From positions 20,211 to 84,210 of the forward strand of contig JBILDU010000001.1 of NCBI GenBank assembly GCA_044352465.1: DNA of 64,000 nucleotides, written 5' to 3'. The translations under genes were made by a program, and so were the position numbers. Below the pieces are notes generated by a model. That model was not told the DNA's origin, made no database searches, and saw nothing but the letters and a program-made list of their open reading frames with translations. This DNA comes from Bdellovibrionota bacterium (GTDB lineage: Bacteria > Bdellovibrionota_C > UBA2361). Below, piece by piece: positions 22,265 through 57,432 of this stretch (position 1 is the first letter of the stretch; each line of letters begins with the position of its first letter).

Positions 22265-23365
22265 GTGTACATCGAATGGCTCAAGCTCTTTCATTTTAGA
22301 AATCTTGAGAACTCAACCCGACACTTTTCTCCGGGCCTCAACATCATCTGTGGTCAAAACGGGCAGGGAAAGACGAACCTTATCGAGGCGATAAACCTCC
22401 TTTGCACCGGCCGTTCATTTCGAACCCAAACGGTAGCGGACCTGGTGCGATGGGGCGAAACGGGCGCGTCAGCATTTGCACTTATCAAAGGTGCATTAAC
22501 CGATGAGGAGCTTGGAGTTTCGATTGAACAGGGAACTCGCAGCGCCTTTGTGAACGGCAACAAGGTGCGCTCCTTGACCGAATTTGTGGGGCGGCTTTTA
22601 TGCGTCACCTTTTCACCGATCGACCTTGCGATCGTTAAAGGCAGCCCTCAGGTGCGGCGTAAATTCCTCGATCGCCACATCGTTGATTTCGAGCCTGCTC
22701 TTATGGGGGCGATCCTTGATTATCATCGCGCCCTTAAAAGTAAGGCGGCCTTACTCAAGGGTGGGGACGCCGACACATCGGCGCTTGAGCCGTGGAATCA
22801 GCTCATGGCGACCGCCGCAGCTTCGATACTCCGATCCCGCCGAGCGTTACTCCGGGGGCTGGAGGAAGCCGCAAATGAGTATTACCGCACGCTAGCTCAC
22901 CACGATGGTCAGGTGAGCTTAAAACTTGAGAGCGATATCGAGGGCGAATCTCCATCGGCTGAGGATATTTTTACCCAACTGATGGACGTTCAGGGGCGTG
23001 AGCGCCGCTACAAGTCACCGGTCCGTGGCCCCCACCGGGATGACGTGCTTATCTCCCTTGATGGGCACGACGCTCGGGCATTCGCCTCACAGGGACAGGC
23101 TCGCAGCATCGTTCTGGCTTTAAAACTTGGCGTGATTGCGCTCTTGGAGTCACATCGAAAAGAGGCGCCGATAGTGCTTCTTGATGATGTCGATTCCGAA
23201 CTCGATCAATCGCGGTGCGACGCGTTGTTTGAACTTATCTATCACACGAAACGACAGGTCTTTGTGACCGGGACAGATCGTGACCGCGCGGCGCGGCGTC
23301 GTCCCGGGGAATGCTCCGAGTGGGAGATTCGGGGTGGGGGTATCAACGTCGCTAGCGATCCCTAA
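22265..23365 (+). CDS. recF: DNA replication and repair protein RecF
   Basis: LKLFHFRNLE...NIICGQNGQGKTNLIEAI (Walker A) and C-terminal signature and Walker B motifs. GTG start. Confidence 0.95.
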   Translation: MYIEWLKLFHFRNLENSTRHFSPGLNIICGQNGQGKTNLIEAINLLCTGRSFRTQTVADLVRWGETGASAFALIKGALTDEELGVSIEQGTRSAFVNGNKVRSLTEFVGRLLCVTFSPIDLAIVKGSPQVRRKFLDRHIVDFEPALMGAILDYHRALKSKAALLKGGDADTSALEPWNQLMATAAASILRSRRALLRGLEEAANEYYRTLAHHDGQVSLKLESDIEGESPSAEDIFTQLMDVQGRERRYKSPVRGPHRDDVLISLDGHDARAFASQGQARSIVLALKLGVIALLESHRKEAPIVLLDDVDSELDQSRCDALFELIYHTKRQVFVTGTDRDRAARRRPGECSEWEIRGGGINVASDP

Positions 23366-23566: not shown

Positions 23567-26143
<2,577 letters not shown>

Positions 26144-35804: not shown

Positions 35805-37406
35805 TTGTTGGAGATTTCACCATTTTGGGGGAGTCCCCCCTCAAGTTCGGGAAAAGACTCTCATTCCTTACCAAATCGACCGATATACCTCGAAGCCTAC
35901 GCAAAGTTGGTGAAGGGTTTCGGGATGGTGTCAAACGCAGAACGTACTCAACGGCGAGATCTGTCCGAGCGTCGTTTAGGAGAGGCGTTTAAATACGTCG
36001 CCCGTGGGTGGATGCCGGTGCAAGCGCCGGTGCTCAAAGATGTCCAACGTAAGCTGGCCGGAAAGCTCTACGAGGGCCGACCGAACGATCTGATCGCGGA
36101 CCTGCGAAACGACTTTTCACTCTTCACCTACTGTTTTCGTCAGCTCGGCCAAAAAGTCGCTGGCGAAGACCGCCTGAGAAGCCCGCTCGATCTCCTGCGC
36201 TCACGTTCACATCGGGAGCTCACCGAAATATTCGGTGTCGGCGGTAATGAGGTTAGCAGTCACGACTTCATCGGGATGAAAGAAGTCCAGCTCCTTCGGC
36301 TCAAACACCAACTGGTGAGTTGCGCAACCGTTGAGTTAATCGCGGAGAAGCAAGGTATCGACGTTGATATCGCCGTGATGGCCGCACTTTTTCGTCAGCT
36401 CGGAGTGGCGCTTGTTGCCTGGAATTATCCGAGTACGTGCGCGAAAGCGCTCAGTACTTACGGAGGAGGGCCCGCCGATGCTCCGCTTCACTTCGACGAT
36501 GAAATCTCAACTATCGTTGGCTTCGATCCGCACCGGTTAGGGAAGGAGTTTCTCCTTAGTTGGAACGCCGACCCCGTTATGCGTCTTGCTTTAGCGAGAG
36601 GCGATGCGGGAGAAGAAGACGAGGAGATCGACGATTCAACCCGTGAGCTTGGCGATGGTGTGCGGCGAATGTGTCAGGTGGGTGAGGCCCTCGCCCGCAC
36701 GAACGACCCCAACTTCTATCCCCGGGCGGTGCAGCGGTGGCGTGAAGTTGAGGGCGAGGTTATCTATTTTCTCGGTCAAGATGGCCTGGAACGGATTCGT
36801 GAGCACTTAGTGGAGCGGTACGCTCACTATGTTGGCTTCGCCCCCAAGCTTTTGGGGGCAGCGCTGTCTCCGCAGCGTCAGGTGGATGTTGTCAATAAAC
36901 ACTACGCGGAGAAGCGCTACGCCGCGAACGAGCACGCGCAGCGTTGTCCTGAGCCGGTGAAAGTCGCCTTTAAAGGGGTTTACGACTCGATCACACAGAA
37001 CCGGATCTCCACCGTGGCATTGAACGGTCTCGTCGGCGAGGTGGTACCGAAGACGGGCTTTCTGCGTGGGTGTGTCTATATTCTCGATCCGAAGCGGATG
37101 GTTTTGGTTCCGCGGTTGCGGCTCGGCGAGACGCGCGAATATCGCCCGGTGAGTTGTGCGTGTGGCGGTGAACGGTCACATCCCGTCTCGGAGGCGTTTC
37201 ACTGTTCGATGCCGATAGTCGAAGAGAACGTTTTTCTGAACGGAGACTTTGTCTCTCACGTTACCGGGAAGTTCGGTAACATCGATAAGGTGGGGATACT
37301 CTACCTGGAGATGACCGAAGCGCTCCGCGAGGTTGATCGGGAAAATCGTCTGCTCTACTTTAAAGCGATTCGACAGTGCCTGAACGACTGTCTTAATCTC
37401 CACTAG
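35805..37406 (+). CDS. Hypothetical cytoplasmic protein (possible HDOD-like signalling domain)
   Basis: The likely start is the Met at 35925. The N-terminal region (APVLKDVQRKLAG...LIADLRNDFSLFTYCFRQLG...) loosely resembles the HDOD pattern. 533 aa. Confidence 0.45.
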   Translation: MLEISPFWGSPPSSSGKDSHSLPNRPIYLEAYAKLVKGFGMVSNAERTQRRDLSERRLGEAFKYVARGWMPVQAPVLKDVQRKLAGKLYEGRPNDLIADLRNDFSLFTYCFRQLGQKVAGEDRLRSPLDLLRSRSHRELTEIFGVGGNEVSSHDFIGMKEVQLLRLKHQLVSCATVELIAEKQGIDVDIAVMAALFRQLGVALVAWNYPSTCAKALSTYGGGPADAPLHFDDEISTIVGFDPHRLGKEFLLSWNADPVMRLALARGDAGEEDEEIDDSTRELGDGVRRMCQVGEALARTNDPNFYPRAVQRWREVEGEVIYFLGQDGLERIREHLVERYAHYVGFAPKLLGAALSPQRQVDVVNKHYAEKRYAANEHAQRCPEPVKVAFKGVYDSITQNRISTVALNGLVGEVVPKTGFLRGCVYILDPKRMVLVPRLRLGETREYRPVSCACGGERSHPVSEAFHCSMPIVEENVFLNGDFVSHVTGKFGNIDKVGILYLEMTEALREVDRENRLLYFKAIRQCLNDCLNLH

Positions 37407-38186: not shown

Positions 38187-39236
38187 TCATCGGACGAGTG
38201 TCAACGGAGCTCCACCGATACGTTGCCGTGTGATTCGGCCGTGGACATCGGCTAGTTCAACAACGATGGGTGCCTCGGAAAATGAGTCGCTCGGAAGGGG
38301 ATGGTACTCGCCGATATACCCACCGGGGGTCCGCTCAATCATTGGGATCGAGCGTACGAGCGTTCCAACCGAAAACGTTGCGGTGAGCTTCTCGGTCCCA
38401 GCCATCACCACCGTCAGATATCCCCGCTCAGAGAGCGTTCCACCGATACCGTCGTGCGCCGAGCTAAAGATCGCGGGAGGGGGGGATTCAAGAAATTCGG
38501 GGCGTCGGTCGACCCGAAGCGGTTCGACTGCTTCTGCTACCACACGGCGGGCGAGGTCGGTGACAAGTTTGTTGTCGAGTCCCTTGAGCGGCTCAATCAG
38601 GAGATCGGAGAAGCCGGTCGGGCCTTTGGTGAGCCCGCGACTATCCGAATCGACGCTCGTGGACCGAAAAAGTACCGCGCCATCGGTAGCGGAGATAAGC
38701 TCTAGATCCACCCCAACCGTCGTCACCGATTCGATGCCGTAATAACGACGATCCCAGCGGGTTATGCGGCCGTAGAGGATAGCATCGCAGCTCAGATGAT
38801 GAATACAGATCTCCTTTGTCGGAGTGGCGAACAGCTTTCTTCGGTCAAGGGAGAGATCGGGGGTAGCGAAGCCGTGATGCAGAAGCTCACCTTGGACTAC
38901 CGCCGGTGAGATGAGGTCGAGGGCGGAGCTCTCTTTCAGCGAACTTCGTACCACCCGCTGGACGAACTGTGTCGGCATTAGCGGGGAGCGCGAGGAGATG
39001 AGAGCAACATCGTCGATGAGGAGGTCGGGATTCTCCTCGATGATCTCGCGCGCAGCATTGACTTGAACAAACGGTAGGATGGCCACCCGGATGGGCGCCG
39101 CAGGGTTGAAATTGAGCTCGTGTTTGAGGCTCGTGGTACAACCGCTCAAAAGGAGAGCAAGTAAAAAGACCATTACGCCACGGTAACGTTCGACGGCGTG
39201 AGAACGTGACTGAGCCCGGAGAACCTTGGTGCTCAT
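38187..39236 (-). CDS. Lipoprotein with CsgG/LpoB/DUF799-like N-terminal module
   Basis: Lipobox LLSGC, then IRVAILPFVQVNAAREI (the VA[IV]LPF motif of periplasmic lipoprotein families). 4-bp overlap with the upstream gene. Confidence 0.55.
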   Translation of the reverse strand: MSTKVLRAQSRSHAVERYRGVMVFLLALLLSGCTTSLKHELNFNPAAPIRVAILPFVQVNAAREIIEENPDLLIDDVALISSRSPLMPTQFVQRVVRSSLKESSALDLISPAVVQGELLHHGFATPDLSLDRRKLFATPTKEICIHHLSCDAILYGRITRWDRRYYGIESVTTVGVDLELISATDGAVLFRSTSVDSDSRGLTKGPTGFSDLLIEPLKGLDNKLVTDLARRVVAEAVEPLRVDRRPEFLESPPPAIFSSAHDGIGGTLSERGYLTVVMAGTEKLTATFSVGTLVRSIPMIERTPGGYIGEYHPLPSDSFSEAPIVVELADVHGRITRQRIGGAPLTLVR

Positions 39237-40378
39237 GCTCCCCCTTTCGACTCGATAGTATAAAGGCGGGGCTCAGAGAGGAGCCCGTTTCGGTCGACGG
39301 CGATAAGCGCAAGGGTGGGGTATCCGCGGAACTTGGCGGTCGGTCCTCGCCACGACGGCCCTCTGCGTTCAGCGATCTTCTCGAAAGGCCCAGCAGGAGT
39401 AGGGGCGCGGTATATAAGAACCTTGACGGTGGCGCTTGGACACGGGGAGGTGAGTGTTACCGCACCGGGAGCAGCAGTGGCAACGAGCTCTCCCCGGCAA
39501 CTGTCGCTCGACTGAGGAGGAAGAGCTCCGAGGGCAAACCGGGTGGCGGTGCCGAAGACGTCCCGAAGTTCGGCTTCCGCGCCGACAAATTGCTCCGGAT
39601 CGACGACAAGATAGTTACTGCAATAGCGGCCCGGGGAGACCTCGCGCAGGTTAGTTTTAGTTTTATTCCTTAGTACCACGACTCCCTGTGCGTTGGGCGA
39701 ACCGAAGAGGCATACCTCATAAACCGCCGCTCTTTTGGGGACGATCGAGGCACGCTCAATATTCGGTGGGGTCACCGCACCAGGGGCGTCACTCTCGGGG
39801 GGGCGAGGGATACTCGTCACCACGGTTTGGGCATACTTCGCTGCAAGCGTTGCGAACGCGGCGTCGTCGCTATTTCGGATCTGCGAGATGAGCCCCTGAA
39901 ATATCTGGCCGGAGTTAAAGAGGAGGCCACCCCGCTCGCTCTCGGTGTGCTTGATAGCGAGAAGCTCGTTTCCCTCGACGTCGGTGAGGGTGAGTCGCCC
40001 GGAGATAGAGTTGTAATAGCCAGCAAGAAAATTATTCCGTGAGGCTTTATCGATGGTAAGGGTTGCAAAGGCGTCGATAGGATACCTGGCGATGAGCTTG
40101 TCCCGCTCTCGGCAGGTTGAATCGGTGCAGATACTATCGATAATCGCCCGGTCAATCGTGCTCAAACCGTGATTGGTGACCTCGTTCTCGAGCGCGGTGC
40201 GCAACGTCGCGACCCGCTCACGCGGGATCGTGGCGGTTGAGCTCGGCGGTAGTATCGCTACGGTGTGAAGTCTCTGATTTAAGAAAAGGGGAGACTGGTT
40301 GACTTTGGGCATCCCGCAACCGCTGCAGGTGGCCACGATAAAGAGAGAGAGGAGGAGGAGCCGTCTTACCGAGTGCAT
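39233..40378 (-). CDS. Lipoprotein paralogous in architecture to 38187-39236
   Basis: Lipobox CSGC, then HTVAILPPSST... Similar layout to the downstream lipoprotein. 381 aa. Confidence 0.55.
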   Translation of the reverse strand: MHSVRRLLLLSLFIVATCSGCGMPKVNQSPLFLNQRLHTVAILPPSSTATIPRERVATLRTALENEVTNHGLSTIDRAIIDSICTDSTCRERDKLIARYPIDAFATLTIDKASRNNFLAGYYNSISGRLTLTDVEGNELLAIKHTESERGGLLFNSGQIFQGLISQIRNSDDAAFATLAAKYAQTVVTSIPRPPESDAPGAVTPPNIERASIVPKRAAVYEVCLFGSPNAQGVVVLRNKTKTNLREVSPGRYCSNYLVVDPEQFVGAEAELRDVFGTATRFALGALPPQSSDSCRGELVATAAPGAVTLTSPCPSATVKVLIYRAPTPAGPFEKIAERRGPSWRGPTAKFRGYPTLALIAVDRNGLLSEPRLYTIESKGGA

Positions 40379-41968: not shown

Positions 41969-44167
41969 CTACTGAGGAGCTACTACCCCGGCATAGCGAT
42001 ACCAGATTCGGGCGTCCGCGGGGATAGAAAAAGAAAGCGCGAGGGGTTCGATCGCGCCGGCCCGGGATGGAAGCGGGAAGCTAAACTCGTTCCATTGGCC
42101 GTTTGCAGTAACGGTAGCTTCGCTCACCGTAAAGTCGGTGCCGTCCGTTCGGACTTTTACGGTAAACGGGATATGCGGCTCGTTGGGGGCGTAAAGCGCC
42201 TTCAACTCGAGGCGTAAGATTCCGTTTGATCGGCTCGGTGCGAGGATAATCGTATCCTCCTTGAGCCGGATCGCTGAGGTGAGCTCGAAAAGGTAACGGC
42301 CACTACCATCGCTCTCGATATATCTGATGTCATCCCCGAAACGAGCCGCTTTTTCCATAACCCCTCCGCCCGAGCGGGGATCGTTCACGATGATATAGCG
42401 GAGTCCAGCGATGGCGGCGAGCTCCCGAATCGCCCGAGCACTGGGAAAGTCGGCGGTATCGTGCGCGAGCTGAGTGAAAAATCGCGGCACTCGCTCCGTC
42501 GTTGGATTGACGAGACGTAACGCGGGAGTAAGAGGGGCGCGATGGACCGTTGCAATCAGAGATGAACTTCGGGTTAAAGGCTCGGCGAAGGGGAGCACGA
42601 TAAGAGCGCTCCCGGGGAGGGCCCTCTCATTGAGTGTGCGTTCGATGTTACCGCTCCTGGGGGTCGGGGTCGTCGGGACCCCGCAACTTGGGTAGCGGTC
42701 CGCGAGAAGCACCGCGCCGAGTAAAGTGACGAGGAAGACCCGTTGTTTCGTGCGTCGGAGCAACCGGGTGAGGCTAAATGCGCCAAGAACGGTGAGCGCA
42801 AGAGAAAATGGGATCATCCCCGCAATGGCGGACGATATCGGGAGGAAAGAGACGAGCGTTCCGATGATCGAGAAAAGTGAGAGGTCTTTGGAAGACGAGG
42901 CTCCGTATGTCGAAGGACCGAGTGCATAGATCAGGAAAAACGAACCGATAAATGCAAAGAGTGCGATAAGATCCCGGTTCGTCACGATCTGAACATTGAG
43001 TTGACGCTCGAGCCCTCCGAGCCGCCGTAGGAGCGCCAGCGGAGAAAAAAAAGCGACCACAAGTAAAATAAATCCGCTTCCGAACCACACCCTTTGTGCG
43101 TGCGCATCAAAAAGAATGAGGCTGAGGACTGCGAGGATCCAGAGAGCGAGAAGGCTGCGTAAATGGCGTGAATCGGTGAGCCGGTATAGGGCGATGAGCG
43201 CACCGATCGATACGATGAAACCGAAAATTCCGGGAAGGAAAGACCCTTCTCCGAGAGTTTGAAAGAGACACCGGGAGTCCCCCAAGGTAACGGTCGGAAG
43301 GAGCTTCTGAACGGTCAGTGTTCGAGCTTCAACTGAGTCTGCGGCAAGTGGTTGAAGAGTCGGAGTGGTCTTCGTGTACATGAAAACCACCAGCAACGTC
43401 GGGAGGAGCCCGAGGGCCATTCCACCCAGAGGGCTGCGAAAACGGGAACACAGGGCTGTCGGGGGGTGCGCGATGGTCAAACCGAGGAATACTAAAAGCG
43501 CGGCCCAGATGCTTATGACGGCGATATCGATGGAGGTCAGCGTTGCGATGACGATGAGGCTACCGAGGACCACGCCGTTTCGAAATGTCGGCGTACCGAT
43601 TATCGCCAGAGACGCCGATATCACCAGTGGGAGGAGAAACGCCGCCTGGAGCGCCGGGTTGAGGTCGAGCATCAGAAACGATGGACCGAGAAGAAATACG
43701 CCTCCCCCCAGAAGGCTTGCTAGCCCGGAACCGGTGAGTTGATAGATCAAGCGGAACGAGCAGTACCCATTTAAGACGGTGGCGCTGAGTAAGAGGATAT
43801 TAAAGAGCGCATCGGAAGAGAGCCCCAACGCTTTGAGTGGAGCGATGATGAGGCTTGGAAAAAGAAGGTTATCCCCCCACCCTAACGAACCGTTCCACGG
43901 ATAAGCGCTGATAGTGGAGAACCATTCGAGGAGGAACGGGGCCCGGATATTTGAATCGAGGGTATAGAGAGCTAGGTGGGCGTAAGCGCCCCCGAGAAGA
44001 GTTGAGCCAACTTCGCCGAGCGAGGGCAAAAAGACGGCGAGCGTGAGAATAAGATAGGTGACAAGAGCGCCCACGCTCAATCGAAAAGAGGGGCGGTAGA
44101 GCGGTAGAAACTCAGCCGGAGCCGGGGTAGTTTTCGAAGCGTCGGTATCGTCGTGTCCCGGAGACAT
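41969..44167 (-). CDS. Large polytopic membrane protein with C-terminal periplasmic domain (possible GT-C-fold glycosyltransferase, YfhO/ArnT-like)
   Basis: 732 aa, more than 12 hydrophobic helices in the first ~480 aa, then a ~250-aa soluble domain. Function is inferred only from this architecture. Confidence 0.6.
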   Translation of the reverse strand: MSPGHDDTDASKTTPAPAEFLPLYRPSFRLSVGALVTYLILTLAVFLPSLGEVGSTLLGGAYAHLALYTLDSNIRAPFLLEWFSTISAYPWNGSLGWGDNLLFPSLIIAPLKALGLSSDALFNILLLSATVLNGYCSFRLIYQLTGSGLASLLGGGVFLLGPSFLMLDLNPALQAAFLLPLVISASLAIIGTPTFRNGVVLGSLIVIATLTSIDIAVISIWAALLVFLGLTIAHPPTALCSRFRSPLGGMALGLLPTLLVVFMYTKTTPTLQPLAADSVEARTLTVQKLLPTVTLGDSRCLFQTLGEGSFLPGIFGFIVSIGALIALYRLTDSRHLRSLLALWILAVLSLILFDAHAQRVWFGSGFILLVVAFFSPLALLRRLGGLERQLNVQIVTNRDLIALFAFIGSFFLIYALGPSTYGASSSKDLSLFSIIGTLVSFLPISSAIAGMIPFSLALTVLGAFSLTRLLRRTKQRVFLVTLLGAVLLADRYPSCGVPTTPTPRSGNIERTLNERALPGSALIVLPFAEPLTRSSSLIATVHRAPLTPALRLVNPTTERVPRFFTQLAHDTADFPSARAIRELAAIAGLRYIIVNDPRSGGGVMEKAARFGDDIRYIESDGSGRYLFELTSAIRLKEDTIILAPSRSNGILRLELKALYAPNEPHIPFTVKVRTDGTDFTVSEATVTANGQWNEFSFPLPSRAGAIEPLALSFSIPADARIWYRYAGVVAPQ

Positions 44168-45256: not shown

Positions 45257-48200
45257 CTACTTCGAGCCCGCTGAAGTGGTGCCGCGCGGTCGCTGAGGGG
45301 CGCGTTTTCTCATTGCCGTGGCGCGCTTGCTCGGCGCTGCGGGACTACCGGCCTTCTCCCCTCGTAAAAGGGTTCCCCACGGGGTCGCCGCGAGAGCGAG
45401 TTCGAGCGGTGAGCCTGAAAAGACGACCTGACCGCCGTGTGCGCCCGCACCGGGACCAAATTCGATGATGTGATCAGCCGCGCGAATCATATCCGCATCG
45501 TGTTCGATGACGAGCACGGTATGGCCACGCTCAACCAAGGCACGGAGGGTTCGAACGAGCTTTTCCACGTCGGCTTTGTGGAGTCCGGTCGTCGGTTCGT
45601 CGAGTATATAAATGGTGTGGCCCCGTCGCTCGGCACTTAACTCTGCAACGAGCTTGAGTCGCTGGCTCTCCCCTCCGGAGAGGGTGGGAGAGCTCTGGCC
45701 CAGCGTCAGATAGCCCAGCCCGAGCTCCACCGCTTGGCGGATCGGCTCGATAATCTTGCGGTGGTGAGTAAACTTTGCTCGCGCTTCCTCAAAGGTGAGT
45801 GCGAGTACGTCGCTGATGGTAAGGTCAGCGAACCGAACCGTCTCAGCTTCGTCGTTAAAGCGGCGACCGCGGCACGCTTCGCATTCAACCCACGCATCGG
45901 CGAGGAAGTTCATCTCGACCTTGAGTTGGCCCTGACCTTTACATTCCGTGCACCGACCTTTTCCCGTATTATAGGAGAAGAAACCGGTCCCCCAGCCGCG
46001 TGCCTTGGCTTCGATAGTCCCCGCGAAGACCGAGCGAATCGTATCCCAGATGCCCAGATATGAGGCTGGAGTCGAACGCGAATTGATGCCGATCGGTTTT
46101 TGGTCGACCTGCAGAATCCGGGCGATTTCGAGAGAGGAGGTGATGACGGTATCTCCTCGAGTCCAGCGGCTTTTCTCCTCATCTCCAAGGGTGAGAGTGT
46201 CCGCAATAATACCGTGGACGAAGGAGCTTTTCCCCGCCCCCGAGACTCCGGCAACAACAACGAGCTGTTGGAGGGGCAGAGAGAGCGCGAGGTTCGCGAT
46301 GTTGTGCTTCGATCCCCCATGAATTTGAAGCGCGGCCCCGCTTCGTGTGCTCTCCCGTGGTGCCGGGGTATTGCCCTCAGAGCGAAGTGCTTGCGCTGTC
46401 ACGCTGGCGTCGCTCAGAAGAAAACCGTCCCGTGGTCCTGCAAAGACGATCTCGCCACCGTTCTTTCCACCACCTGGCCCGACATCGATAACGTAATCCG
46501 CCGACCGTATGGCATCCCCGTCGTGTTCGATCATGATGACCGCGTTTCCGCGGTCGCGCAGGGCGCGGAGGCGGCTGAGCACTTTGACATTATCGAGTGG
46601 ATGCAGTCCCACACTCGGCTCATCGAATATGTAAATCACACCCGTCAAAGGGGAGCCCATCGCGGTTCCGAGGCGTAGCCGTTGAAGCTCTCCGCCCGAG
46701 AGCGTCGTACACTCTCGCTCGAGCGTAATCTCTCCGAGCCCTAGCGCCTCGAGGGTCTCAATCTTTGAATCAAGCTCGCTGATAATGGGGAGGGCGATCG
46801 TTCTTTCGCGCGGGGAAAAGTCGAGCGCCTCAAGGAAGCTCCGGAGGCCGTTCGGAGTAAGCTGGGACGCTGCATAGATATTACGCCCGCAAAGTTGCAA
46901 GTGTCGCCCGAGGGTCTGAATGCGCGCCCCGCCGCATTCGGTGCAGACGGCGTCACCCCGCCCCTTGCCCGTGCCCTCACACCGCGGACACCGCCCGCGG
47001 GGCGAATTGAATGAGAGATCTTCCGGATCCGGCTTGAAAAAACCCCGTTGGCACACGGGGCAGGTTCGCTCAGTGCTGTAGACCGAATCCGCGCCGTCAG
47101 CTGACACGATGAGGGTTCCGCTGCCGAGACTGAGCGCCTGTTCGACCCCGGCGACGATGAAATCGGGGGTGACCTGATTCGGATTAAACTGCGCCACGAG
47201 GTATTCAATCGTGTGAGGCTTGCTCTTCTCGAGCCCCGCACCGATGTTCAGACTTGAAGTCTTAAAAAGGACACCATCAACGCGGACATGCGATATCTCG
47301 GCATCGATTGCACGCTGGAGTACCGCCTTGTGATTTCCCTTTTTGCCTTTAATTATCGGGGCGAATATTCGTACCGACTTCGCCACGATCTTCTTGAGGA
47401 GGTGCGATATCTCGAGGGGAGCGAGCGCGGCGATCCGTTCAGTCGGGTGATCGGGACAGTATTGGGTTGCGGTCTTGGCGTAGAGAAGGCGGAGGAAGTT
47501 ATAGATCTCCGACATCGTCGCCACCGTTGACAGACGGGACGGTTGAAATGTGTGCTGATAGACGCAGATTGTGGGAGCGATGTTGGTGAGGCTATCGATC
47601 TCCGGTCGTTTTAACTCTTTGATGTATTGTCGAGCATACGGTGAGAGGCAGTCGAGATAGCGGCGCTGTCCCTCCGCGTAGATGATATCCTTGGCGATAC
47701 TCGACTTCCCTGAGCCAGAGACCCCGGTAAAGACGACTACTTGGTCGAGTGGGATATCGAGCGAAACGTTTTTGAGGTTGTGCTCCCGAGCTCCCCGAAT
47801 AGAGAGATGGGACGGTGATGGTACCGCCGGACGGGGTGTTTGTGGTTGAGCGGTACGCTTCGACGTGGCGAGAAACTCACGCAAGGCTCGAGCCGTGTAT
47901 GAGGTCCGGCTTGCCGCCGCAGTCTGAAAATCTGCCGGGGGGCCGGCGAGCAGGACCGCGCCACCTCCTGCTCCCCCCTCGGGACCTAGGTCGATAATCC
48001 AGTCAGCGGCACCGATGAGGAGGAGGTTGTGTTCGATACACAGTACCGCATGCCCCGCCGTGCGGAGAAAGTGAAAGAGCTCAATCAGGCGCTCGACATC
48101 GCGAACGTGGAGACCGGTGGTGGGCTCATCGAAGATGAACAGATTGCGGCCCCGCCGACCGTGTTCGAGATACGGGACGATCTTGAGCCGCTGGGCCTCG

Positions 48201-50749
48201 CCACCCGAGAGCTCGCTGAGCGAGTGCCCGAGGGTGAGATGACCAAGGCCCAGCCGCGAGAGATTATGGGCGGCTCGGGCAACGGTGCTGTCTTCAGGGA
48301 AAAATCGGTGGCACTCATCGACCGACATGCCGAGAAAGTCGTCGGCGTTCTTCCCCCGATAGGTGACCTCAAGAACCGGAAGCTGGAAGCGTTTGCCCTG
48401 GCAAACCTCGCAAACGATGTATACGTCGCTCAGAAACTGCATGTCCTCGCGAATATGCCCTGCTCCCTTACACGCCGCACACCGCCCGGCATCAACGTTG
48501 AAGGAGAACGTACTTTTCGTAAATGCCCGCATCGTCGCCCCGTCGCTGGCGGCGAGGAGTTCGCGGATCGTATCCCAAATGCCGGTATAAGTGGCGATAT
48601 TCGCGCGCGGGCTCTTCGTCAGCGGCGATTGATCGACGAGAAGGATCTCGTCGAGATGCTCGAACCCAGAGACCGCATTCTCGCCTTCGGCAGACGGTTC
48701 GCCCCTTTGAAATCGTTCGTACGCTGCCATGACGACTTCGTGGACGAGGGTGCTCTTTCCGCTTCCCGAGACCCCGGTGAGGCAGACAAATGCATCGAGG
48801 GGGACCGTTACCGAGATGTTCTTCAGATTTCGGACAGTAGCTCGCGCTATCGTCAAAGCTCGGTCGGTAGCCATGAAGGGGGCGGGGCGGGGTAACTTCC
48901 AGGAGATCCCCGGCCACAACGCCGCGCTCCCGTTAAAGGTAACCTCTCCGCCCTGCTGCCCGGCCGCTGGTCCCATCTCAATGATGTGGTCAGCTGACTC
49001 GATACAGTCAAGGTCGTGTTCAACGACGAGAAGGCTGTTGCCCCTTCGTTGAAGGCGAATCATCGCCTCGATCAGGCGCTCGGTGTCGCGGGCGTGGAGT
49101 CCAACCGAAGGCTCATCAAGAACAAAGTGTGTCGAGATGAGGTCGCTTCCCAAAGCCGTGGTGAGGTTCACCCGTTGGGTTTCACCACCGGAGAGGGTGC
49201 GCGATTGACGATCCAGAGTGATATAGGGAAGACCGAGGCTCACGAGGTAGTCGAGTCGTGCTATCACTGCAGCCAGAACATCGCGCACCTCGTTCGGGTA
49301 CCTCCGTCGACGTCGTAGCGTCTCTTCAAGATCGCGCATCCACGTCAGGAGCTCACCGACCGGCATACGCCAGATATCGGGCAATGTCCTGCCGTTGATT
49401 CGGTAGGTGAGTCCCTCGCGCTTCAATCGAGTTCCCGCACATTCCGGGCAGAGAAATTGGCCACGGTATTTAGCGAGGAATACCCGGACATGCATTTTGT
49501 AGGCCTTGCGCTCAAGTCGCTTGAACCAAGGTTCAACCCCCCGGTACTCCCGTGAGGTATGGGTGAAGATTTGGTCGTGCTGCTCGGGTGTGAGCGTGCG
49601 CCATGGACGATCGATGGGAATCCCGTGGGTGCGACAGAATCCTAATAGTCGGCGTCTTTCGACTCGACCTGCCTTCCCCGCCCAACAGTCGAGGGCATCC
49701 TCCTCGATTGAGAGGAGTGGGTTTGGGACGCAGCGCTTACGATCCACCCTCAGGACGTGGCCGAAACCCTTGCACTCAGCGCACGCCCCAAGAGGGTGAT
49801 TGAAGGAGAAAAGAGAGGGCTTCGGCGTTCCAATGGCGACGTGTCCCCCGGGGCAGACGAATGAACTATGGTAATCGGCGTGAAAGTGTCGCTCGCCCGG
49901 CGTTCGGGTGGGGGGACCAAAAGTACTGCCTCGAATAAACGGTCGGAACCCTCGGGGGGTCACATCGATGACGGTGCAACTCCCCCCGCTCAACGTAAAG
50001 CATTGCTCGACCGATTCGCGGAGTCGCTTTGAGTTTAAGCTTCCGCTCTTCATACGATCGACGATGATGACGAGCTCGGAGATATGGCGAAGTCGCTCGG
50101 GTGGCGTCTCCTCGAGAAGCTCAATTGCTCCCGTCGTATCGTCGAAGTATCGCCCAAACCCCAGAGTCTTGAGCCGCTCGATCTCGAGTTCCCGCGTTTT
50201 CGGAGTAAAGCTTACCCGTGCCCCGATAAGGAGTGTGGGGCTCTGGCGGAGCTTTTGCAGTTCGAGGACATGTTCGGTGAGTCGGGTGGGAGTCCAACGC
50301 GTGAAGGCGATTTCGCAGTTCGGGCACACCGGTTCGGCGACCGCGCCCCACAGGATCTTGAGGTAGTCGTTGATATTGGTCATCGATCCTACGGTTGAGC
50401 GAGAGCTCAATACGCGTGTGCGCTGCTCGATGGCGATCGCTGGGCGAACGTTATCGATACGCTCGACGGCCGGTCGTTTGACCTTATCAAAGAATTGGCG
50501 GGTGTAAGGGGAGAAAGTTTCAATATAGCGGCGTTGGCCCTCAGCATACACCGTATCGAAAGCCAGCGACGATTTTCCCGATCCGGAAATGCCGGTCACT
50601 ACCGTGAAGGCGTCGTGAGGGATGTCGAGAGAAACCCCCTTAAGGTTGTGCTCGGTGGCCTGAATGATATGGAGAGATTTATGTTTCACCGGGCGCGTGG
50701 GCGGTTGGTAATGGCTAAAAGCATAGCTGTTCACCCGCATCAGAAGCAA
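45257..50749 (-). CDS. uvrA: Tandem-duplicated UvrA-like ABC ATPase (two complete UvrA modules in one 1830-aa polypeptide)
   Basis: Four Walker A motifs ([36 protein letters not shown]) and four LSGGE(T/A/L/S)QR signatures. Each half has UvrA-type CxxC zinc modules (e.g. CAACKGAGH...CEVCQGKRF and CTECKGQGQ...CEACRGRRF). Confidence 0.9.
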
Positions 50750-50795: not shown

Positions 50796-52046
50796 ATGAG
50801 TGCAACAAGGCGAGCTCGGTTCGATATGTTGATAAAGATATTTTCCCGATTACTTCTCGGATGGGTCGCGCTCCTGCCCAACTACCCAGCCGCCTTTGCT
50901 CAGGCGGGTAGTCCGGGTTGTAGCCTCGTCACCGAGGGATTGGCGGTAGCCGAAACGATCCGGGGGCTTAAAGCGAAGCGGCCGGTGCCGTGTCGTCTTC
51001 ATCAGAAAGCGGAAGTGAAGGCTCACCTCATCGATTTGATTGAATCTGAGATCCCCGCTGAGAAGCTTGCGTCAGAAGAGCTTGTTCTTAAAGGCATCGG
51101 CCTGCTGCCCCCAGAGTTTCGGTACAAAGAGGGACTGATCGATCTCTATGTCAGTCAGCTTGGCGGTTATTACGATCCGGCACGGAAGCATTTCGTCATG
51201 GCGGCCTGGATGCCCGACTTCGTGCAACGCCCCATCGTCGTGCACGAATTGACCCACGCGCTTCAAGATCAGTATTTCGATCTGCAGCGCTTCATACCGA
51301 ATCGTACGGCGACAAGCGACGCCCTCCTCGCCCGATCGGCGGTCGCCGAGGGGGACGCGACGGCGGTGATGGTTGATCACGGCCGACAACAAGCTGGGCA
51401 GGGGCCACTTTCGAAAGCTGAGGGAGTGGAGTTTATCATTGCTCAGAACGTCATTGGCATGGCGATGATGCCGGGGCTTGAAGAGGTGCCCGAAGCGCTC
51501 AAGGCGATGCTTATTTTTCCCTACACCAGCGGACTTCGCTTCGGTCATTCGCTGTTAAAAAAGGGGGGCTATCGCGCTATCGATGAGGCTTTCCGCTCAC
51601 CCCCCCGTTCAACTGAGGAGATCCTTCACCCGGAGCTTTACGGGAGGGACAAACCTGATTTCCTGACGCTGAACGACCTCGATGCGTTGCCATTCGGCCC
51701 TTCGGGAGGGGTGGTCGAATATGGAGATACTATCGGGCAGTTTCTAATCGCGGCGACGCTCGGAGCGCTTTCTGGTGATAAGGCGCTGGCGACCACAGCC
51801 GCCGCAGGGTGGGGGGGGGATCGTGTGACGCTGGTGCGCCATCCAACCACCGCTGCTCGAACTCTCGTCTGGAGGACGAACTGGGATTCTCCTGAGGATG
51901 CGGTCGAGTTTCTTAGACTCTATCGGACGATCCTCGAATCAAAGGGTTGGCGCGAAGCCAATATTCACGCTGGAGCCTCTCCTCGTGAGGTGGTGTTCGT
52001 GCGGTTGATTAAAGAAGGCGGCGGTAAGCGAGGTTCAGTTCGATGA
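50796..52046 (+). CDS. Secreted putative zinc metallopeptidase (HExxH)
   Basis: Signal peptide (LLLGWVALLPNYPAAFAQAG) and IVVHELTHALQDQY (HExxH) with a downstream EGDATA. 416 aa. Confidence 0.55.
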   Translation: MSATRRARFDMLIKIFSRLLLGWVALLPNYPAAFAQAGSPGCSLVTEGLAVAETIRGLKAKRPVPCRLHQKAEVKAHLIDLIESEIPAEKLASEELVLKGIGLLPPEFRYKEGLIDLYVSQLGGYYDPARKHFVMAAWMPDFVQRPIVVHELTHALQDQYFDLQRFIPNRTATSDALLARSAVAEGDATAVMVDHGRQQAGQGPLSKAEGVEFIIAQNVIGMAMMPGLEEVPEALKAMLIFPYTSGLRFGHSLLKKGGYRAIDEAFRSPPRSTEEILHPELYGRDKPDFLTLNDLDALPFGPSGGVVEYGDTIGQFLIAATLGALSGDKALATTAAAGWGGDRVTLVRHPTTAARTLVWRTNWDSPEDAVEFLRLYRTILESKGWREANIHAGASPREVVFVRLIKEGGGKRGSVR

Positions 52047-52317: not shown

Positions 52318-52539
52318 GTGAAATCAGACAAGAATCACCGCGAATTTATTGAAGCGTGGCGAAAAGCCGCTCGTGTATTGCACGAGGTGCGGGCGCGGGA
52401 ATTGCCGGAGATCGACACCGTCGCGGGCCTTCAAAGTTTGTTGCCAGCTTTTGCGGCGAGCGTGCGTCAAACTGAGCTGCGCCCCTCCTCGGGTCTTCTG
52501 GAGCAGCAGAGGATTTTTGCCCGACGGATAAGTCGATGA
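52318..52539 (+). CDS. Small hypothetical protein, translationally coupled to downstream nucleotidyltransferase (candidate antitoxin/partner)
   Basis: 73-aa ORF whose TGA overlaps the downstream ATG (ATGA at 52536-52539). No family recognised. Confidence 0.3.
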   Translation: MKSDKNHREFIEAWRKAARVLHEVRARELPEIDTVAGLQSLLPAFAASVRQTELRPSSGLLEQQRIFARRISR

Positions 52540-53102
52540 AAAATATCTTCGAAGAGGCCTTTGCTCTCCAAGCATTCTTGCTGGAAAAGTCACTGCGGTT
52601 TTGTTTTATTGGGGGCTTAGCGCTCCAACGATGGGGAGAGCTTCGAACAACAAACGATATTGACCTCACCATTCTGACCGGCTTTTCGGGCGAAGGAAAG
52701 GTCGTTGACCTCCTTCTCGCGAGGTACCGAGGACGGATTGCGAATGCACGCGAGACAGCTCTCGCCGCGCGAGTACTTCTTCTAAAGTCAGATGCTGGAG
52801 TGGGTATCGATATCGCCTTGGGAGGAATGCCGTTCGAAGAATCAACGATTCAGCGAGCATCGGAAGGTGAGTACCTACCGGGAATTAGTTTAAGAACCTG
52901 TTCGGCTGAAGACCTCATCGTGCATAAAGCGTTTGCCGCTCGCCCAAAGGACTGGCTCGATATCGAGGGCATAGTTTTGCGACAGGCGGTCCTTGACTGG
53001 CATTACATTGAAGCCCAACTGGTGCCTCTCCTCGATTTAAAAGAGGAGCCAGAGCACTGGGACGCTCTCATCAAGCTGCGTCGACGACTTCGAGGGGAGT
53101 AG
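52536..53102 (+). CDS. Nucleotidyltransferase-fold protein, AbiEii/minimal-NTase-like
   Basis: FIGGLALQRWGELRTTNDIDLTI fits the G[GS]x9-13DxD polymerase-beta NTase motif as seen in AbiEii-like toxins. A C-terminal DLIVHKAFAARPKDWLDIEGIV segment follows. 188 aa. Confidence 0.55.
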   Translation: MKNIFEEAFALQAFLLEKSLRFCFIGGLALQRWGELRTTNDIDLTILTGFSGEGKVVDLLLARYRGRIANARETALAARVLLLKSDAGVGIDIALGGMPFEESTIQRASEGEYLPGISLRTCSAEDLIVHKAFAARPKDWLDIEGIVLRQAVLDWHYIEAQLVPLLDLKEEPEHWDALIKLRRRLRGE

Positions 53103-53185
53103 CGAGTGGCGTCAGGTCTTTCGAGTAAAAAGGCAATGGATCCCACTCGAGGACCGGGCTGAAAAAGCCGTCCGGAGGAGACTTC

Positions 53186-53830
53186 TTAAAACCGTGGCAT
53201 CGTTACGCCGAGCGCATCGAAGACGAATTCGAGTCCGTGGAATAGCGCGTAAAAGATGAGGCAAAAATAGGCGATCGTCACGATTGTGAGGCCGATCGAG
53301 ACGAGGACGAAGAGACCATCATCTTCGAGTTCGGCGATGCAAGCGGCGATGATCGCCAAAGCCGGTAAGGTGTTGTTAAAAGGGATTCCGAAAAATGGAA
53401 TCGCCATGAGGAGTCCCGCGATAATGATCAGAGCCCCGATGAGCTTATCGCCCCGTTCTCCGGCGAGAAGGTACTGTTGCCGCGGACGGGTAAAGCGCCC
53501 GCAGATAGAGACGACTTTACGACACACCCATAAGAGGCGTTGCCATGTTTTCTGGCCGGGCGCGATCGAACGAATCCGTTCCGGTAGCCACGGAGCTGTG
53601 CGACCATTCGCCAGTTGCCATCCCAGTGCGGCGAACGTGAGCCCGCCGATGGTTGCCAGGGGCCCGAGCGAGATCGGCTGCAGAAAAGGCAAACAGAGAA
53701 TGATGCAGATAAGGCTAAAGGTTGACTCTTTGAGGTTGTCGAACGCTTGCCCGAGCGTTAGCTCTTCTCGTTGCGCGCGGTCCTCACATTCAGAGAGCGT
53801 CTTGATAAGTTCTTCGTAGGTTACCGACAC
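53186..53830 (-). CDS. exoD: ExoD-family exopolysaccharide synthesis membrane protein
   Basis: The ~214-aa, 4-5 TM layout with the cytoplasmic N-terminus MSVTYEELIKTLSECEDRAQREELTLGQAFDNL... matches the ExoD family. Confidence 0.75.
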   Translation of the reverse strand: MSVTYEELIKTLSECEDRAQREELTLGQAFDNLKESTFSLICIILCLPFLQPISLGPLATIGGLTFAALGWQLANGRTAPWLPERIRSIAPGQKTWQRLLWVCRKVVSICGRFTRPRQQYLLAGERGDKLIGALIIIAGLLMAIPFFGIPFNNTLPALAIIAACIAELEDDGLFVLVSIGLTIVTIAYFCLIFYALFHGLEFVFDALGVTMPRF

Positions 53831-54495
53831 AAGCCTCCTTGGTTATCGAAGAGTTATGCCAAAAGACGGCGTGGGGGACAATCACCCGCGCCGGGAAAGC
53901 TCACGTACTAGAGTTCCGACCCGATGCGTCTTGACCGATGCAGCGCGAAAGTGCCGTTATCGCAGGTGGTTAGGCGGACGCTGCAAGATGTGAGCGCCTC
54001 CGCGACGCAGTACTCGTCCTAAAGCGGGTGAAAGTGGGGGGCCGAGAGGAGTCTCCCAGAGGGGAGTTTCTCAAGCCCTCCAAAGAAGCTCTTGATCTGA
54101 GGGAAAATCGCGCTAGACTGGCCGGCCCTGCCTCAATCGGTAGACCTTGCATTTTCGTCGCTCGAAGATAACGCGGCAAAAGCGTCAAGGAGTTGTTCCT
54201 TCTCTCCACCCAGTCGTCGCGTAGTTGTTCAATCGGTACGGTCGTTGACGCCCCGCGAAGGAAACCGTTCCTTCGCAGGGCTCGATCGTGCGTTTTCGGT
54301 ATGCACCTCGGTCACGGCGTCGCTCTGAGCGATGTGCATACACGGATCTGAAGGTTTTTCCCGATATCTCGCGGGCCTGTTTCCCAACGGCATAGCCGTG
54401 ATCGTTCGATCGCCGAGCGATCGCGGCTGTGTCGATTTGGGAGTCCGGGCCCAAAGCGATATCTGTTTTTTCATTCCCGGTGAAGGAGATTTCCG

Positions 54496-54990
54496 ATGAG
54501 GAAGGATTCTCGTAAGGCGACCCCTAAAGTCGCCGATCTCTTGACCCCGTTGGTCAACGAGATTCTCGAACGCACCAGCAAGTGTGTTCGAATCTGGCAC
54601 GAGAACGACATCGCGGTGGTTGGAACCGATAACCGCGATGTCACCGAGGTGGAGGCGACGATCACGGGGCTGTTGCGTGTGGTTCCGCGGGCGGAAGCTG
54701 AGGCTCGCCTGCGTGGACTGTGCAACTGCGCCGTGAAGCGCCCCAAGCTGCTCGACAAGCTGAAGCTCGTCGCCGCAGCGCTCGAAGGGGAACACCCGCG
54801 GGCTCGTCTCAAGGGGAAGCGCCACAAGCACGATGTTCGGCTGCTCACGGATGAACTCCGGGGTGGCCTTCTCGTGACGGTGCAGACCTTGTTCGAGCGT
54901 ACTGGTGCCCCGCAGCACAAGGTGACCCCGCTTGCTTCGGCTCGCGGTGTCGTTCCGTCGCAGGGCAGTCAGACCAGCGCAAGGAGGTGA
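54496..54990 (+). CDS. Hypothetical cytoplasmic protein
   Basis: ATG with AAGGAG 7 bp upstream. 164 aa with a protein-like composition; the overlapping minus-strand 318-aa ORF is low-complexity junk. Confidence 0.45.
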   Translation: MRKDSRKATPKVADLLTPLVNEILERTSKCVRIWHENDIAVVGTDNRDVTEVEATITGLLRVVPRAEAEARLRGLCNCAVKRPKLLDKLKLVAAALEGEHPRARLKGKRHKHDVRLLTDELRGGLLVTVQTLFERTGAPQHKVTPLASARGVVPSQGSQTSARR

Positions 54991-55117
54991 CCAGCACGGG
55001 TGAGTTTCCCCCGACCGGTTTGGGCCCCCCGGGTTTCGATCAGCTCGATCGTTACCCGGGGGGTTCTGTGGTTTCAAATTATTCGTGTATGCACGTCCTT
55101 TGACGTCGCGGCGGCGA

Positions 55118-55507
55118 TTAGAAAGCTCCGGTGCGGAGCATAACCAGCGTGCACGCTTCGAGAACAGCGATACCGTTTTCCGCAAGCTGTTGTTGGAGTG
55201 CCGTGTTTTCTGCGCCAGGATTAAAAATAACTCGATGTGGGCTCAGCTCAATGAGTCCTTGTGCGAGTCGAGTTGAGATCGTTGGACCTACATACAGCGT
55301 CACCGTGTGGATTGGGGTGTTTTTCGCGGCAAGAATTGAAATATCCGAGTATACCGGTCGCCCCGCAATTGAGGTGAGGCGCGGCGACATGAGATGCACC
55401 GTATGGCCGTAGTCTTCGAGCATCTGCATCGCCATGTAGGCATAGCGAGCAGGATTATCGGAGGCTCCTATGAGCGCGACCGACAGGGCGGTTGAAGCGA
55501 AATTCAT
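55118..55507 (-). CDS. CoA-binding domain protein (YccU/YneT-like)
   Basis: ALIGASDNPARYAYMAMQMLEDYGHTV is the CoA_binding_2 signature. Probable start at the Met at 55507. Confidence 0.75.
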   Translation of the reverse strand: MNFASTALSVALIGASDNPARYAYMAMQMLEDYGHTVHLMSPRLTSIAGRPVYSDISILAAKNTPIHTVTLYVGPTISTRLAQGLIELSPHRVIFNPGAENTALQQQLAENGIAVLEACTLVMLRTGAF

Positions 55508-55776
55508 CGACTGAATATCGCACATATTTCCGCACGGGCGAAACCGGAGGTGGAGTGTCGGTGGTGTGCTTCATTTTTGTGTAGGTGCTGTAGTCAGCTG
55601 AAAAAACTATACTTTTAGCCCCGTTTGGAGGCGGGTGCGCGTTAGACTAGCTCCCCGAATTCCCGTAAAATGAGGTGTTGGTATGCGGCGACGTCTCATC
55701 GTGAAGCGTCTGGTCGCAATACGAGCGGGGGACCTGGGGTTAAACACCGACAGGTTATCAAATTCAAAGAGATCGC

Positions 55777-57432
55777 GTGCGCTACACGGGAGTCGACACT
55801 CATCGTTCCTTCGATCCGGAGCATCCCGGTGCCGTTGGGCACTCCTTGCGAAGAATTATCTTCGACCAGAGCCGGTCGGAGTTCCAAAGAGCTGTCGACC
55901 TACTGGCTCTTTCGAAGCAGTGTCCCGCCCGCTCTCTCACTCCACAGAATCTCGCGCAGATATTTCTGGCCCTTGGAAATCTCGCCGAGCACGAACCGAC
56001 CGTGGCGCACTTTCTTGCTGACGGTGAGCCTCGCAAAGAACTGAGTCGCCTGATATCGATCGGCCAACGTCAACGCGATGGATTCGAGCCCCGCAACATC
56101 GCCGAGACTCTCCGTGGGCTTGCTTTTTTGGGGCGGGGTGACGAAACGTTTACCCATGCGCTGTTAGCTCGGGCAACCGGACTCGTGGATGATTTTGAGC
56201 CGGCTGATCTTGTGACGACCCTCGGCGCAGTGCGCATTATCCCACTCGACCGGGTGCATTTTCTTGAGGCCGCAAATCGTGTCCTGAGAGTGGCGGACCC
56301 GGATACTCAGTTCAACGAACTCGAGGTAGTGCTTGGAGCGTTGTATCTCACGGATCTACAGCAGGTCGACTCCGCTCATCTCTTTGTGGACTCGGCGATG
56401 CGTCGCCTCGATACCTTGGAGAGTCGACATATTGGAATCCTCGGAGCGGCGTTGACAAAGCTGCCTGAGGCATCAGACTACTATGCTCTCTCGGTAGCTG
56501 ATGAACTTGAGCGACGAATGGCTTGCGAGCCGGAGGCGGTTCCCGCTCGAGAGGTGGTTCAGGTGGTGGAGCTTCTTGGTCGGCGTGGCGCCTACCACAA
56601 AGGTTTTCTCGAAGCCTTTTGTCGGGAGTACGCCAACCGGCTGCATCAACTTTCGGACGACGAGTTGTGTGAGACGGCGCGTGGGCTCGCTCTTCTCGGC
56701 GAAGCTCAACCATCCTTTTTCCGGCGCCTTGCCGACGAGGCGCTCCTTCGCCTTGAGGGGCTCGATCCGGCGCACATCGCCGTTATTGCCTGGTCTTTTG
56801 CTAGTTTGGGTATTCGCAACGACACCATGTTTAATCGCTTGGCGGGAGCGATGCAGGGTCGGTATGGGGAATTTTCGCAAGCCGCCGCGGTCAACTTTGC
56901 GTGGTCGTTCGCGCCGCTCGACAACGTGGTTGCCCGGAGCGTGATCAGTCAAGCGGCGCGGCGATTTCGAAGCGATGAGACCGAGGTATTACTTGCTCGG
57001 CAGCTTCATATCGCCGAAATCGCTGTAGGAATAGTGAAGCCGGGGCAGTGCTCCGCTGAGATAATTGATCAAGCGCAAGCGGAAATCGGTGCGGGCGTGA
57101 TGAATGGGTTCGAGCAAGGGGTCCTGGAGAGCCTCCAGCGACTGAAAGTTCTGGGCGTCGCTGTCACGCCGTTTCAGGTGGTCGAGGGGCTCGTACCTGA
57201 TTTCGTTGTTTCACACGGTGGTCGGAAGATCGTGGTCGAATGTGATGGTACGAAGTTTCATCTGAATTCCGTCGGCGATCTGCGCGGCAACGATAAGATC
57301 CAAGACCAAGTCTTTCGCCGGTGTGGATACGAGGTTGTTCATATCCGCAGCGACGAGTGGTTAGGCCTCTCGCTCGCTGAGCGGGAGCCCTATCTTGCGG
57401 CCCGGCTCAATTTGCCGATCGGGCGGCTCTAA
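55777..57432 (+). CDS. Helical-repeat (OPR/HPR/FASTK-like) protein with C-terminal DUF559/RAP-like PD-(D/E)xK nuclease domain
   Basis: About nine ~36-aa repeats of pattern P..(I/L)A..L.(A/G)LA.LG...D..F..L. C-terminus VVSHGGRKIVVECDGTKFHL...GYEVVHIRSDEW matches the Vsr-like DUF559/RAP motif (E-x-D-G...H). Confidence 0.65.
   Translation: MRYTGVDTHRSFDPEHPGAVGHSLRRIIFDQSRSEFQRAVDLLALSKQCPARSLTPQNLAQIFLALGNLAEHEPTVAHFLADGEPRKELSRLISIGQRQRDGFEPRNIAETLRGLAFLGRGDETFTHALLARATGLVDDFEPADLVTTLGAVRIIPLDRVHFLEAANRVLRVADPDTQFNELEVVLGALYLTDLQQVDSAHLFVDSAMRRLDTLESRHIGILGAALTKLPEASDYYALSVADELERRMACEPEAVPAREVVQVVELLGRRGAYHKGFLEAFCREYANRLHQLSDDELCETARGLALLGEAQPSFFRRLADEALLRLEGLDPAHIAVIAWSFASLGIRNDTMFNRLAGAMQGRYGEFSQAAAVNFAWSFAPLDNVVARSVISQAARRFRSDETEVLLARQLHIAEIAVGIVKPGQCSAEIIDQAQAEIGAGVMNGFEQGVLESLQRLKVLGVAVTPFQVVEGLVPDFVVSHGGRKIVVECDGTKFHLNSVGDLRGNDKIQDQVFRRCGYEVVHIRSDEWLGLSLAEREPYLAARLNLPIGRL

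Follow-up and report, generated by a model that had tools for sequence, protein, structure and literature searches.

The 64,000-nucleotide stretch analyzed here (the window) covers positions 20,211 to 84,210 of contig JBILDU010000001.1 of a Bdellovibrionota bacterium (GenBank assembly GCA_044352465.1). It carries on its minus strand a single open reading frame (ORF; 45257..50749, 1830 amino acids (aa) plus stop) that most likely encodes a UvrA-family DNA-damage sensor with both protomers of the usual homodimer in one polypeptide. Canonical UvrA is a homodimer of chains of about 940 aa. In the double UvrA, the first module (half 1) resembles a complete sensor protomer of class I type, and the second (half 2) a partner for ATP hydrolysis and DNA binding from which two peripheral functions are gone, as judged from domain content and residue conservation. 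The fusion is genuine and under selection.

Sequence motifs and family assignment

The start codon of the double uvrA gene as listed is TTG, with an ATG present at codon 4. The gene and its parts were delimited as follows, in coordinates of the window.

45257..50749, minus strand: double UvrA ORF, 1830 aa (NF001503, 1696 bits; TIGR00630, 1662 bits)
47870..50680, minus strand: half 1, aa 24-960, full class-I-like module (E. coli alignment, TIGR00630, AlphaFold2)
49856..50314, minus strand: UvrB-binding domain of half 1, aa 146-298 (PF17760, 25.3 bits; alignment)
49451..49771, minus strand: insertion domain of half 1, aa 327-433 (PF17755, 39 bits; alignment)
47807..47869, minus strand: inter-module linker, aa 961-981 (unconserved, 24-50 aa among homologues)
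45380..47806, minus strand: half 2, aa 982-1790, module without insertion domain (E. coli alignment, TIGR00630, AlphaFold2)
47063..47446, minus strand: UvrB-binding-domain fold of half 2, aa 1102-1229 (PF17760, 51.6 bits; residue census)
46934..46990, minus strand: site of the insertion-domain deletion in zinc module 2 of half 2 (alignment, 120 homologues)
45260..45379, minus strand: basic, unconserved C-terminal tail, aa 1791-1830 (0.13 identity; predicted local distance difference test (pLDDT) score <50)

Motif scanning of the 1830-aa protein located four Walker A motifs (aa 53, 659, 1009 and 1501), four LSGGE signatures (aa 519, 847, 1350 and 1690), four Walker B motifs and four H-loops, which make up four full ATP-binding cassette (ABC) ATPase sets. 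From the CxxC pairs, six zinc modules were assigned, three per half. The cysteines of zinc module 1 are C142, C145 and C299 in half 1 and C1098, C1230 and C1233 in half 2, and the fourth ligand in each half is presumably a nearby histidine, like the C-x-x-H of E. coli. The whole protein passed the cut-offs of the NCBIfam equivalog NF001503 (1147 bits) and of TIGR00630 (730 bits), and each half passed TIGR00630 alone (842 bits for half 1 and 828 bits for half 2). Sequence matches in the PDB were class I UvrAs of B. stearothermophilus, T. maritima and M. tuberculosis, with E values down to ~1e-200. A scan of the gene for promoters and terminators returned nothing exceeding shuffled expectation.

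Domain organization of the two halves

Both halves were aligned to E. coli UvrA taken from NC_000913.3, and AlphaFold2 was run on each half singly. Half 1 aligned with E. coli UvrA residues 9-940 at 37% identity and half 2 with residues 4-284 and 406-925 at 38-40% identity; the mutual identity of the halves is just 31-37%. Two ATPase domains and three zinc modules are present in each half. Half 1 has in addition a UvrB-binding domain and an insertion domain. Half 2 has a UvrB-binding-domain fold, but in the alignment to E. coli UvrA the insertion domain (E. coli ~285-400, ~115 aa) is entirely missing from it. In a Pfam search of the whole protein, the insertion-domain family PF17755 was likewise matched in half 1 alone. 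The domain there consists of the 107 residues between the two pairs of zinc module 2 (C323/C326 and C434/C437), whereas the half 2 pairs (C1254/C1257 and C1269/C1272) have 11 residues in between, so that the pairs lie 15 residues apart in half 2 (aa 1254-1272) and 111 apart in half 1. The UvrB-binding domain PF17760 was matched above its cut-off of 23.3 bits in both halves, the copy in half 1 being divergent in sequence with an insertion of ~20 aa. The halves are joined by a linker of 21 residues rich in Pro, Ser, Thr and Gln.

The AlphaFold2 model of half 1 (pLDDT 85, predicted template modeling (pTM) score 0.78) matched B. stearothermophilus UvrA 2r6f with a query template modeling (TM) score of 0.80, and that of half 2 (pLDDT 88, pTM 0.82) matched M. 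tuberculosis UvrA 3zqj with a query TM score of 0.81. The UvrB-binding regions of both halves were confidently folded in these models. Class I UvrAs were the best matches of both halves in the structure search, with class II proteins ranked lower.

An earlier note on this DNA, made by a model from the sequence alone, had described a head-to-tail fusion of two UvrA units with four Walker A motifs, four signatures and zinc modules in both halves, and the continuous ORF, the four ATPase sets, the NF001503 score and the motif scan all bear this out. It had also proposed aligning each half to E. coli UvrA, which placed a UvrB-binding domain in both halves and an insertion domain in half 1 only; its description of two complete modules therefore has to be given up for half 2. 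The junction, which it had put near aa ~875 (nucleotides 48100-48200), falls there in the Walker B region of the second ATPase of half 1, and the real junction is at aa ~960-981 (nucleotides 47807-47869).

Residues at the UvrB and DNA interfaces

In E. coli UvrA, R216 and E222 make up the UvrB interaction surface (Manelyte et al., PMC3025350), and deletion of the insertion domain (delta290-400) reduces damage specificity (PMC3025350). The half 1 equivalents of E. coli R206, R216, E219 and E222 are R232, R242, E245 and E248, all retained. Among 120 homologues, half 1 has R at the R216 position in 79 and Q in 34, and an acidic residue (E or D) at the E222 position in 112. Half 2 of the studied protein carries F1197 at the R216 position, where 115 of the 120 homologues have a hydrophobic residue; its E222 position is E1203 here and varies among homologues. 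Both halves retain the arginines that correspond to the DNA-binding R712 and R724 of E. coli UvrA.

Conservation of the fused gene

The identical protein is recorded on 3 contigs, and at least 120 homologues, 1740-1924 aa long, are 53-74% identical to it across 96-100% of its length. In a scan of one genome per species, 73 loci were found to carry the gene in one continuous frame, at 45-77% identity. These loci are nearly all in metagenome-assembled genomes (MAGs) of uncultured bacteria labeled Bdellovibrionota, Bdellovibrionales, Oligoflexia, "Deltaproteobacteria" or Pseudomonadota. Across the 120 homologues, the Walker A lysines, Walker B motifs, signatures and H-loop histidines of the four sites and all zinc cysteines are kept at 98-100%. 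The zinc-module-2 spacing is 110-111 in half 1 in 120/120 homologues and 14-23 aa in half 2, also in 120/120, with all four cysteines of the latter 100% conserved; every homologue in this set thus has the insertion-domain deletion in half 2. The UvrB-binding domain of half 2 has an identity of 0.47 and a near-constant length of 129-135 residues. The linker has an identity of 0.12, and half of the alignment of the C-terminal tail (50%) is gaps.

The earlier note had named a frameshift or mis-join of two adjacent uvrA-like genes as the finding that would undo its reading. Such an assembly or frameshift artefact is refuted by the conservation of the gene across homologues, genomes and clusters, and its probability is negligible: the frame runs unbroken through the linker, the identical protein recurs on the 3 contigs, the single ORF is shared by the 120 or more homologues and the 73 genomes from independent assemblies, and ~140 more clusters of double UvrAs are found in other phyla. 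A stand-alone half 2 (P0182, 882 aa) starts within the end of half 1 and was set aside as a truncated gene call, not a split gene.

Double-length UvrA proteins in other lineages

Residues 631-1830 were used to query 1.84 billion cluster representatives, and the best 150 matches were examined. Nearly all of these are 1550-2343 aa long, in ~140 clusters at 50% identity. For 126 complete double UvrAs, the protein was cut into halves and each half was typed against E. coli UvrA, which gave the following layouts.

Full + insertion-domain-less (the layout of the studied protein): 45/126
Full + full: 37/126
Both halves without UvrB-binding domain: 27/126
Other layouts: 17/126

The layout of the studied protein is therefore the commonest among the 126. 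In its 45 clusters, R216 is kept in 38/45 first halves but only 9/45 second halves, and in the full + full doubles it is kept in 26/37 second halves (Fisher p = 6e-6, uncorrected for shared ancestry). By these counts, the insertion domain and the UvrB contact tend to be lost together, from the same half. The 27 clusters without a UvrB-binding domain in either half amount to two class-II-like modules fused, at ~1590-1680 aa, and a few double UvrAs reach ~2340 aa.

Named carriers of double UvrAs include Planctomycetota, Chloroflexota, Ca. Poribacteria, "bacterium HR30" and Ca. Kinetoplastibacterium crithidii, and their proteins all carry a plain UvrA label. The full + insertion-domain-less protein of Ca. 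Kinetoplastibacterium crithidii comes from a reduced endosymbiont genome, on a contig of 816,901 bp. A related family of double UvrAs of 1900-2000 aa was found on many contigs of 3-6.7 Mb. Homologues of the studied protein are already named "excinuclease ABC subunit UvrA" in many MAG records. In the searchable literature, neither a description of a double-length UvrA or its layouts nor a definition of class III UvrA was found, and the class-III-like label given in the earlier note is accordingly not supported. The double UvrA is thus an already catalogued kind of protein, uncharacterized as far as the searchable literature shows. The earlier note had called such fusions rare, which does not agree with the best 150 matches, nearly all double-length, or with the existence of the family model NF001885.

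Measured by distance in the core alignment, half 1 is closest to the first halves of other doubles and half 2 to their second halves, and since the halves group in this way, the fusion is older than the Bdellovibrionota-type family. In a neighbor-joining tree of the halves, the split between first and second halves is clean near the tips alone, and deeper nodes mix fast-evolving sequences. Branches in this tree are long and E. coli UvrA is the sole canonical outgroup; because the deep branching is unreliable with this single outgroup, no claim is made for one or for several fusions.

Comparison with known UvrA proteins

Each half shares with class I UvrAs (E. coli; 2r6f/3uwx; 3zqj, 9ga2-9ga5) the fold, the ATPase pair, the zinc modules and the UvrB-binding domain, and the likeness is fuller in half 1, which also has the insertion domain and contacts of the R216/E222 type. 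Unlike the class I homodimer of 940-aa chains, the studied protein holds two modules in one chain, and its half 2 is without the insertion domain and the R216-type contact. Class II UvrAs are defined by a missing UvrB-binding domain, with the insertion domain kept (PMC5128194). Class II proteins (D. radiodurans UvrA2, 2vf7; Ecm16, 7sh1; DrrC) are, like half 2, UvrA-family ATPases minus one domain of class I, but half 2 is their opposite, with the UvrB-binding domain kept and the insertion domain gone. The analogy to DrrC and UvrA2 drawn in the earlier note accordingly does not fit, as both halves have the domain that class II lacks. Among engineered deletions (E. coli UvrA delta290-400; T. maritima UvrA delta117-399, 6n9l), half 2 is the natural equivalent of delta290-400; in the engineered delta290-400 homodimer both insertion domains are gone, whereas one remains in the studied protein, in half 1.

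A parallel in overall build is NF001885/PRK00635 ("excinuclease ABC subunit A"), an 1809-position model that likewise describes ~1800 aa in two tandem modules labeled UvrA, and which we take to be a model of chlamydial UvrA. Against it the studied protein scored 1032.5 bits, failing the cut-off of 3054, and both of its halves best matched the first half of the model. On these two grounds the studied protein is placed in a different double-UvrA family, possibly from a separate fusion. The other double families (Planctomycetota, Chloroflexota, Ca. Poribacteria, Ca. Kinetoplastibacterium and "bacterium HR30") show the same overall fusion, and identity to double UvrAs outside the Bdellovibrionota-type family is at most ~46%.

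Proposed mode of action and alternative readings

On balance we favor a fold-back pseudo-dimer with one insertion domain that would engage UvrB chiefly via half 1 and then proceed to UvrB/UvrC excision. In this scheme, the two halves would fold back on each other via the flexible linker of 24-50 residues to give a head-to-head intramolecular pseudo-dimer, the equivalent of UvrA2, with four active ATPase sites. The pseudo-dimer would scan DNA and sense helix distortion with its single insertion domain, UvrB would be recruited mainly or solely through half 1 in an A2B1-like manner, and the lesion would be handed over to normal UvrB/UvrC excision, half 2 having turned into a specialized ATPase and DNA-clamp partner. 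For M. tuberculosis UvrA, cryo-electron microscopy published in 2025 described an interplay of the insertion domain with the UvrB-binding domain, insertion domains of UvrA2 that are already asymmetric (one "recognition", one "support") and a UvrA2UvrB1 intermediate (PMC11985968).

The double UvrA is probably the principal UvrA of the cell and no accessory paralogue. A housekeeping role is supported by the chromosomal site near the origin, away from any resistance or biosynthetic cluster, and by the same layout in Ca. Kinetoplastibacterium crithidii, whose reduced genome is unlikely to keep a spare paralogue. The earlier note had seen no canonical uvrA in the window, and this stands: a tblastn search of the 64 kb with E. 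coli UvrA gave no other match, and no second uvrA was found in the flanks of the 73 related loci either.

Several observations weigh against the favored scheme. Neither half alone reaches the NF001503 cut-off (866 and 838 versus 1147 bits), and because of these scores and of the 37-40% identity to E. coli UvrA both halves are diverged UvrA modules. The UvrB-binding domain of half 1, on which UvrB recruitment would depend, is the most variable part of the protein (0.31 identity, 131-215 residues among the 120 homologues), and the comparison of UvrB contacts rests on two interface residues taken from a paper, R216 and E222. The pairing of the halves within one chain is our inference, the structural models covering the halves singly. 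A tblastn search with the E. coli proteins gave no uvrB or uvrC, either within the window or around the 73 related loci, and a canonical uvrA may lie outside the 64-kb window.

The last point bears on an alternative in which the genome has a canonical uvrA at another site and the double UvrA is an additional, accessory paralogue, with a specialized role in, for example, particular adducts, intercalators or stress-induced repair. The divergence of the halves just described speaks for it, as do the extra UvrA-like genes of unclear role in many bacteria (PMC5128194; PMC9328131) and the reach of our search, which extended over the 64-kb window and the flanks of related loci. Class II accessory proteins are, however, without a UvrB-binding domain, and here both halves have one, with R216/E222 kept in half 1. 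The lack of resistance or biosynthetic genes around the locus, the conservation of the gene in 73 species-level genomes of the clade and the same architecture in a 0.8-Mb endosymbiont genome also argue against an accessory role, and we regard it as unlikely, if deserving of serious attention. The arrangement of the chains is a separate matter. Two chains could associate with the halves pairing between them, giving four UvrA equivalents, at most two insertion domains and two UvrB sites; the structural models, which cover single halves, leave room for this, and a higher-order assembly was seen in the M. tuberculosis UvrA crystal, although its authors judged it non-physiological (PMC3167621). The long (24-50 aa), unconserved and Pro/Ser-rich linker is what is expected of an intramolecular tether, and the losses in half 2 fit a constant half 1 partner, which both arrangements allow but only the intramolecular one guarantees. 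Pairing between chains is accordingly judged quite improbable.

Within the fold-back scheme, a stricter version was also considered, in which the protein is an obligately asymmetric sensor that receives one UvrB per molecule from one defined side, the "UvrB-binding" domain of half 2, conserved yet re-surfaced, being perhaps re-purposed for another partner, e.g. Mfd or UvrC. Loading of exactly one UvrB from one side would follow from the insertion domain and UvrB contacts being kept in half 1 only. We put this version forward tentatively and consider it rather doubtful.

Genomic neighborhood

The locus is chromosomal and close to the replication origin, with the double uvrA ~25 kb from a dnaA-dnaN-recF-gyrB cluster.

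19289-20710: dnaA
21060-22220: dnaN
22265-23365: recF
23699-26143: gyrB

GC skew turns from negative to positive at ~16-22 kb of the window, GC content falls to 0.51 at 20-22 kb, and topA and mnmG lie at 3-7.8 kb. ORFs of 975 and 910 aa were checked as candidates for a second uvrA and rejected, one being without a family match and the other topoisomerase I. No resistance or biosynthetic cluster was found near the double uvrA in the window, and no tRNA genes and no Rfam families at gathering threshold were found in the 64 kb.

The genes flanking the double uvrA are unrelated to repair and encode a polytopic membrane protein, an aldo-keto reductase and a secreted zincin-like protein of the Hvo_1808 family. 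The last of these (416 aa, 50796-52046, plus strand) is divergent from the double uvrA and has a signal-peptide-like N-terminus and a HELTH zincin-like motif; it scored 138 bits against the Hvo_1808 surface-protein family, under the cut-off of 200. It adjoins the double uvrA in 46/73 related loci. As a secreted, Hvo_1808-family, zincin-like protein it was not accepted as a functional partner, and the adjacency was judged to be synteny. Directly downstream of the double uvrA lies the gene for the polytopic membrane protein (732 aa, 41969-44167, minus strand), which has no family match, is weakly conserved (24-31%) in 10 related loci and occupies a stretch of unusually strong strand skew (AT skew 0.20, GC skew 0.15).

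A small patch at 52536-57432 is absent from most related loci. It encodes an AbiEii-like nucleotidyltransferase toxin at 52536-53102 and a protein of the ExoD family at 53186-53830. Also in it are an ORF of 318 aa without a family match and one of 551 aa whose match to the REase_MTES_1575 nuclease domain is weak (36 bits, cut-off 38). Long ORFs without a Pfam match are those of 975, 533, 349 and 381 aa (26664-29591, plus strand; 35805-37406, plus strand; 38187-40378, minus strand), and the 975-aa and 381-aa ORFs have no NCBIfam match either. In 17-19 related loci, the region downstream of the double uvrA again holds the 381-aa ORF and an adjoining ORF of 153 aa, at 35-47% identity.

Implications

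By itself the gene is an ordinary one, and its possible value is as a natural single-chain asymmetric UvrA in which the division of labor between protomers could be studied. Open questions on UvrA include whether the working complex is UvrA2UvrB2 or UvrA2UvrB1, and how a symmetric dimer chooses one strand and hands over to one UvrB (PMC11985968, PMC3025350). With the insertion domain and the UvrB contacts gone from one half and both kept in the other, the role of each protomer could be mutated separately, which is impossible with a homodimer.

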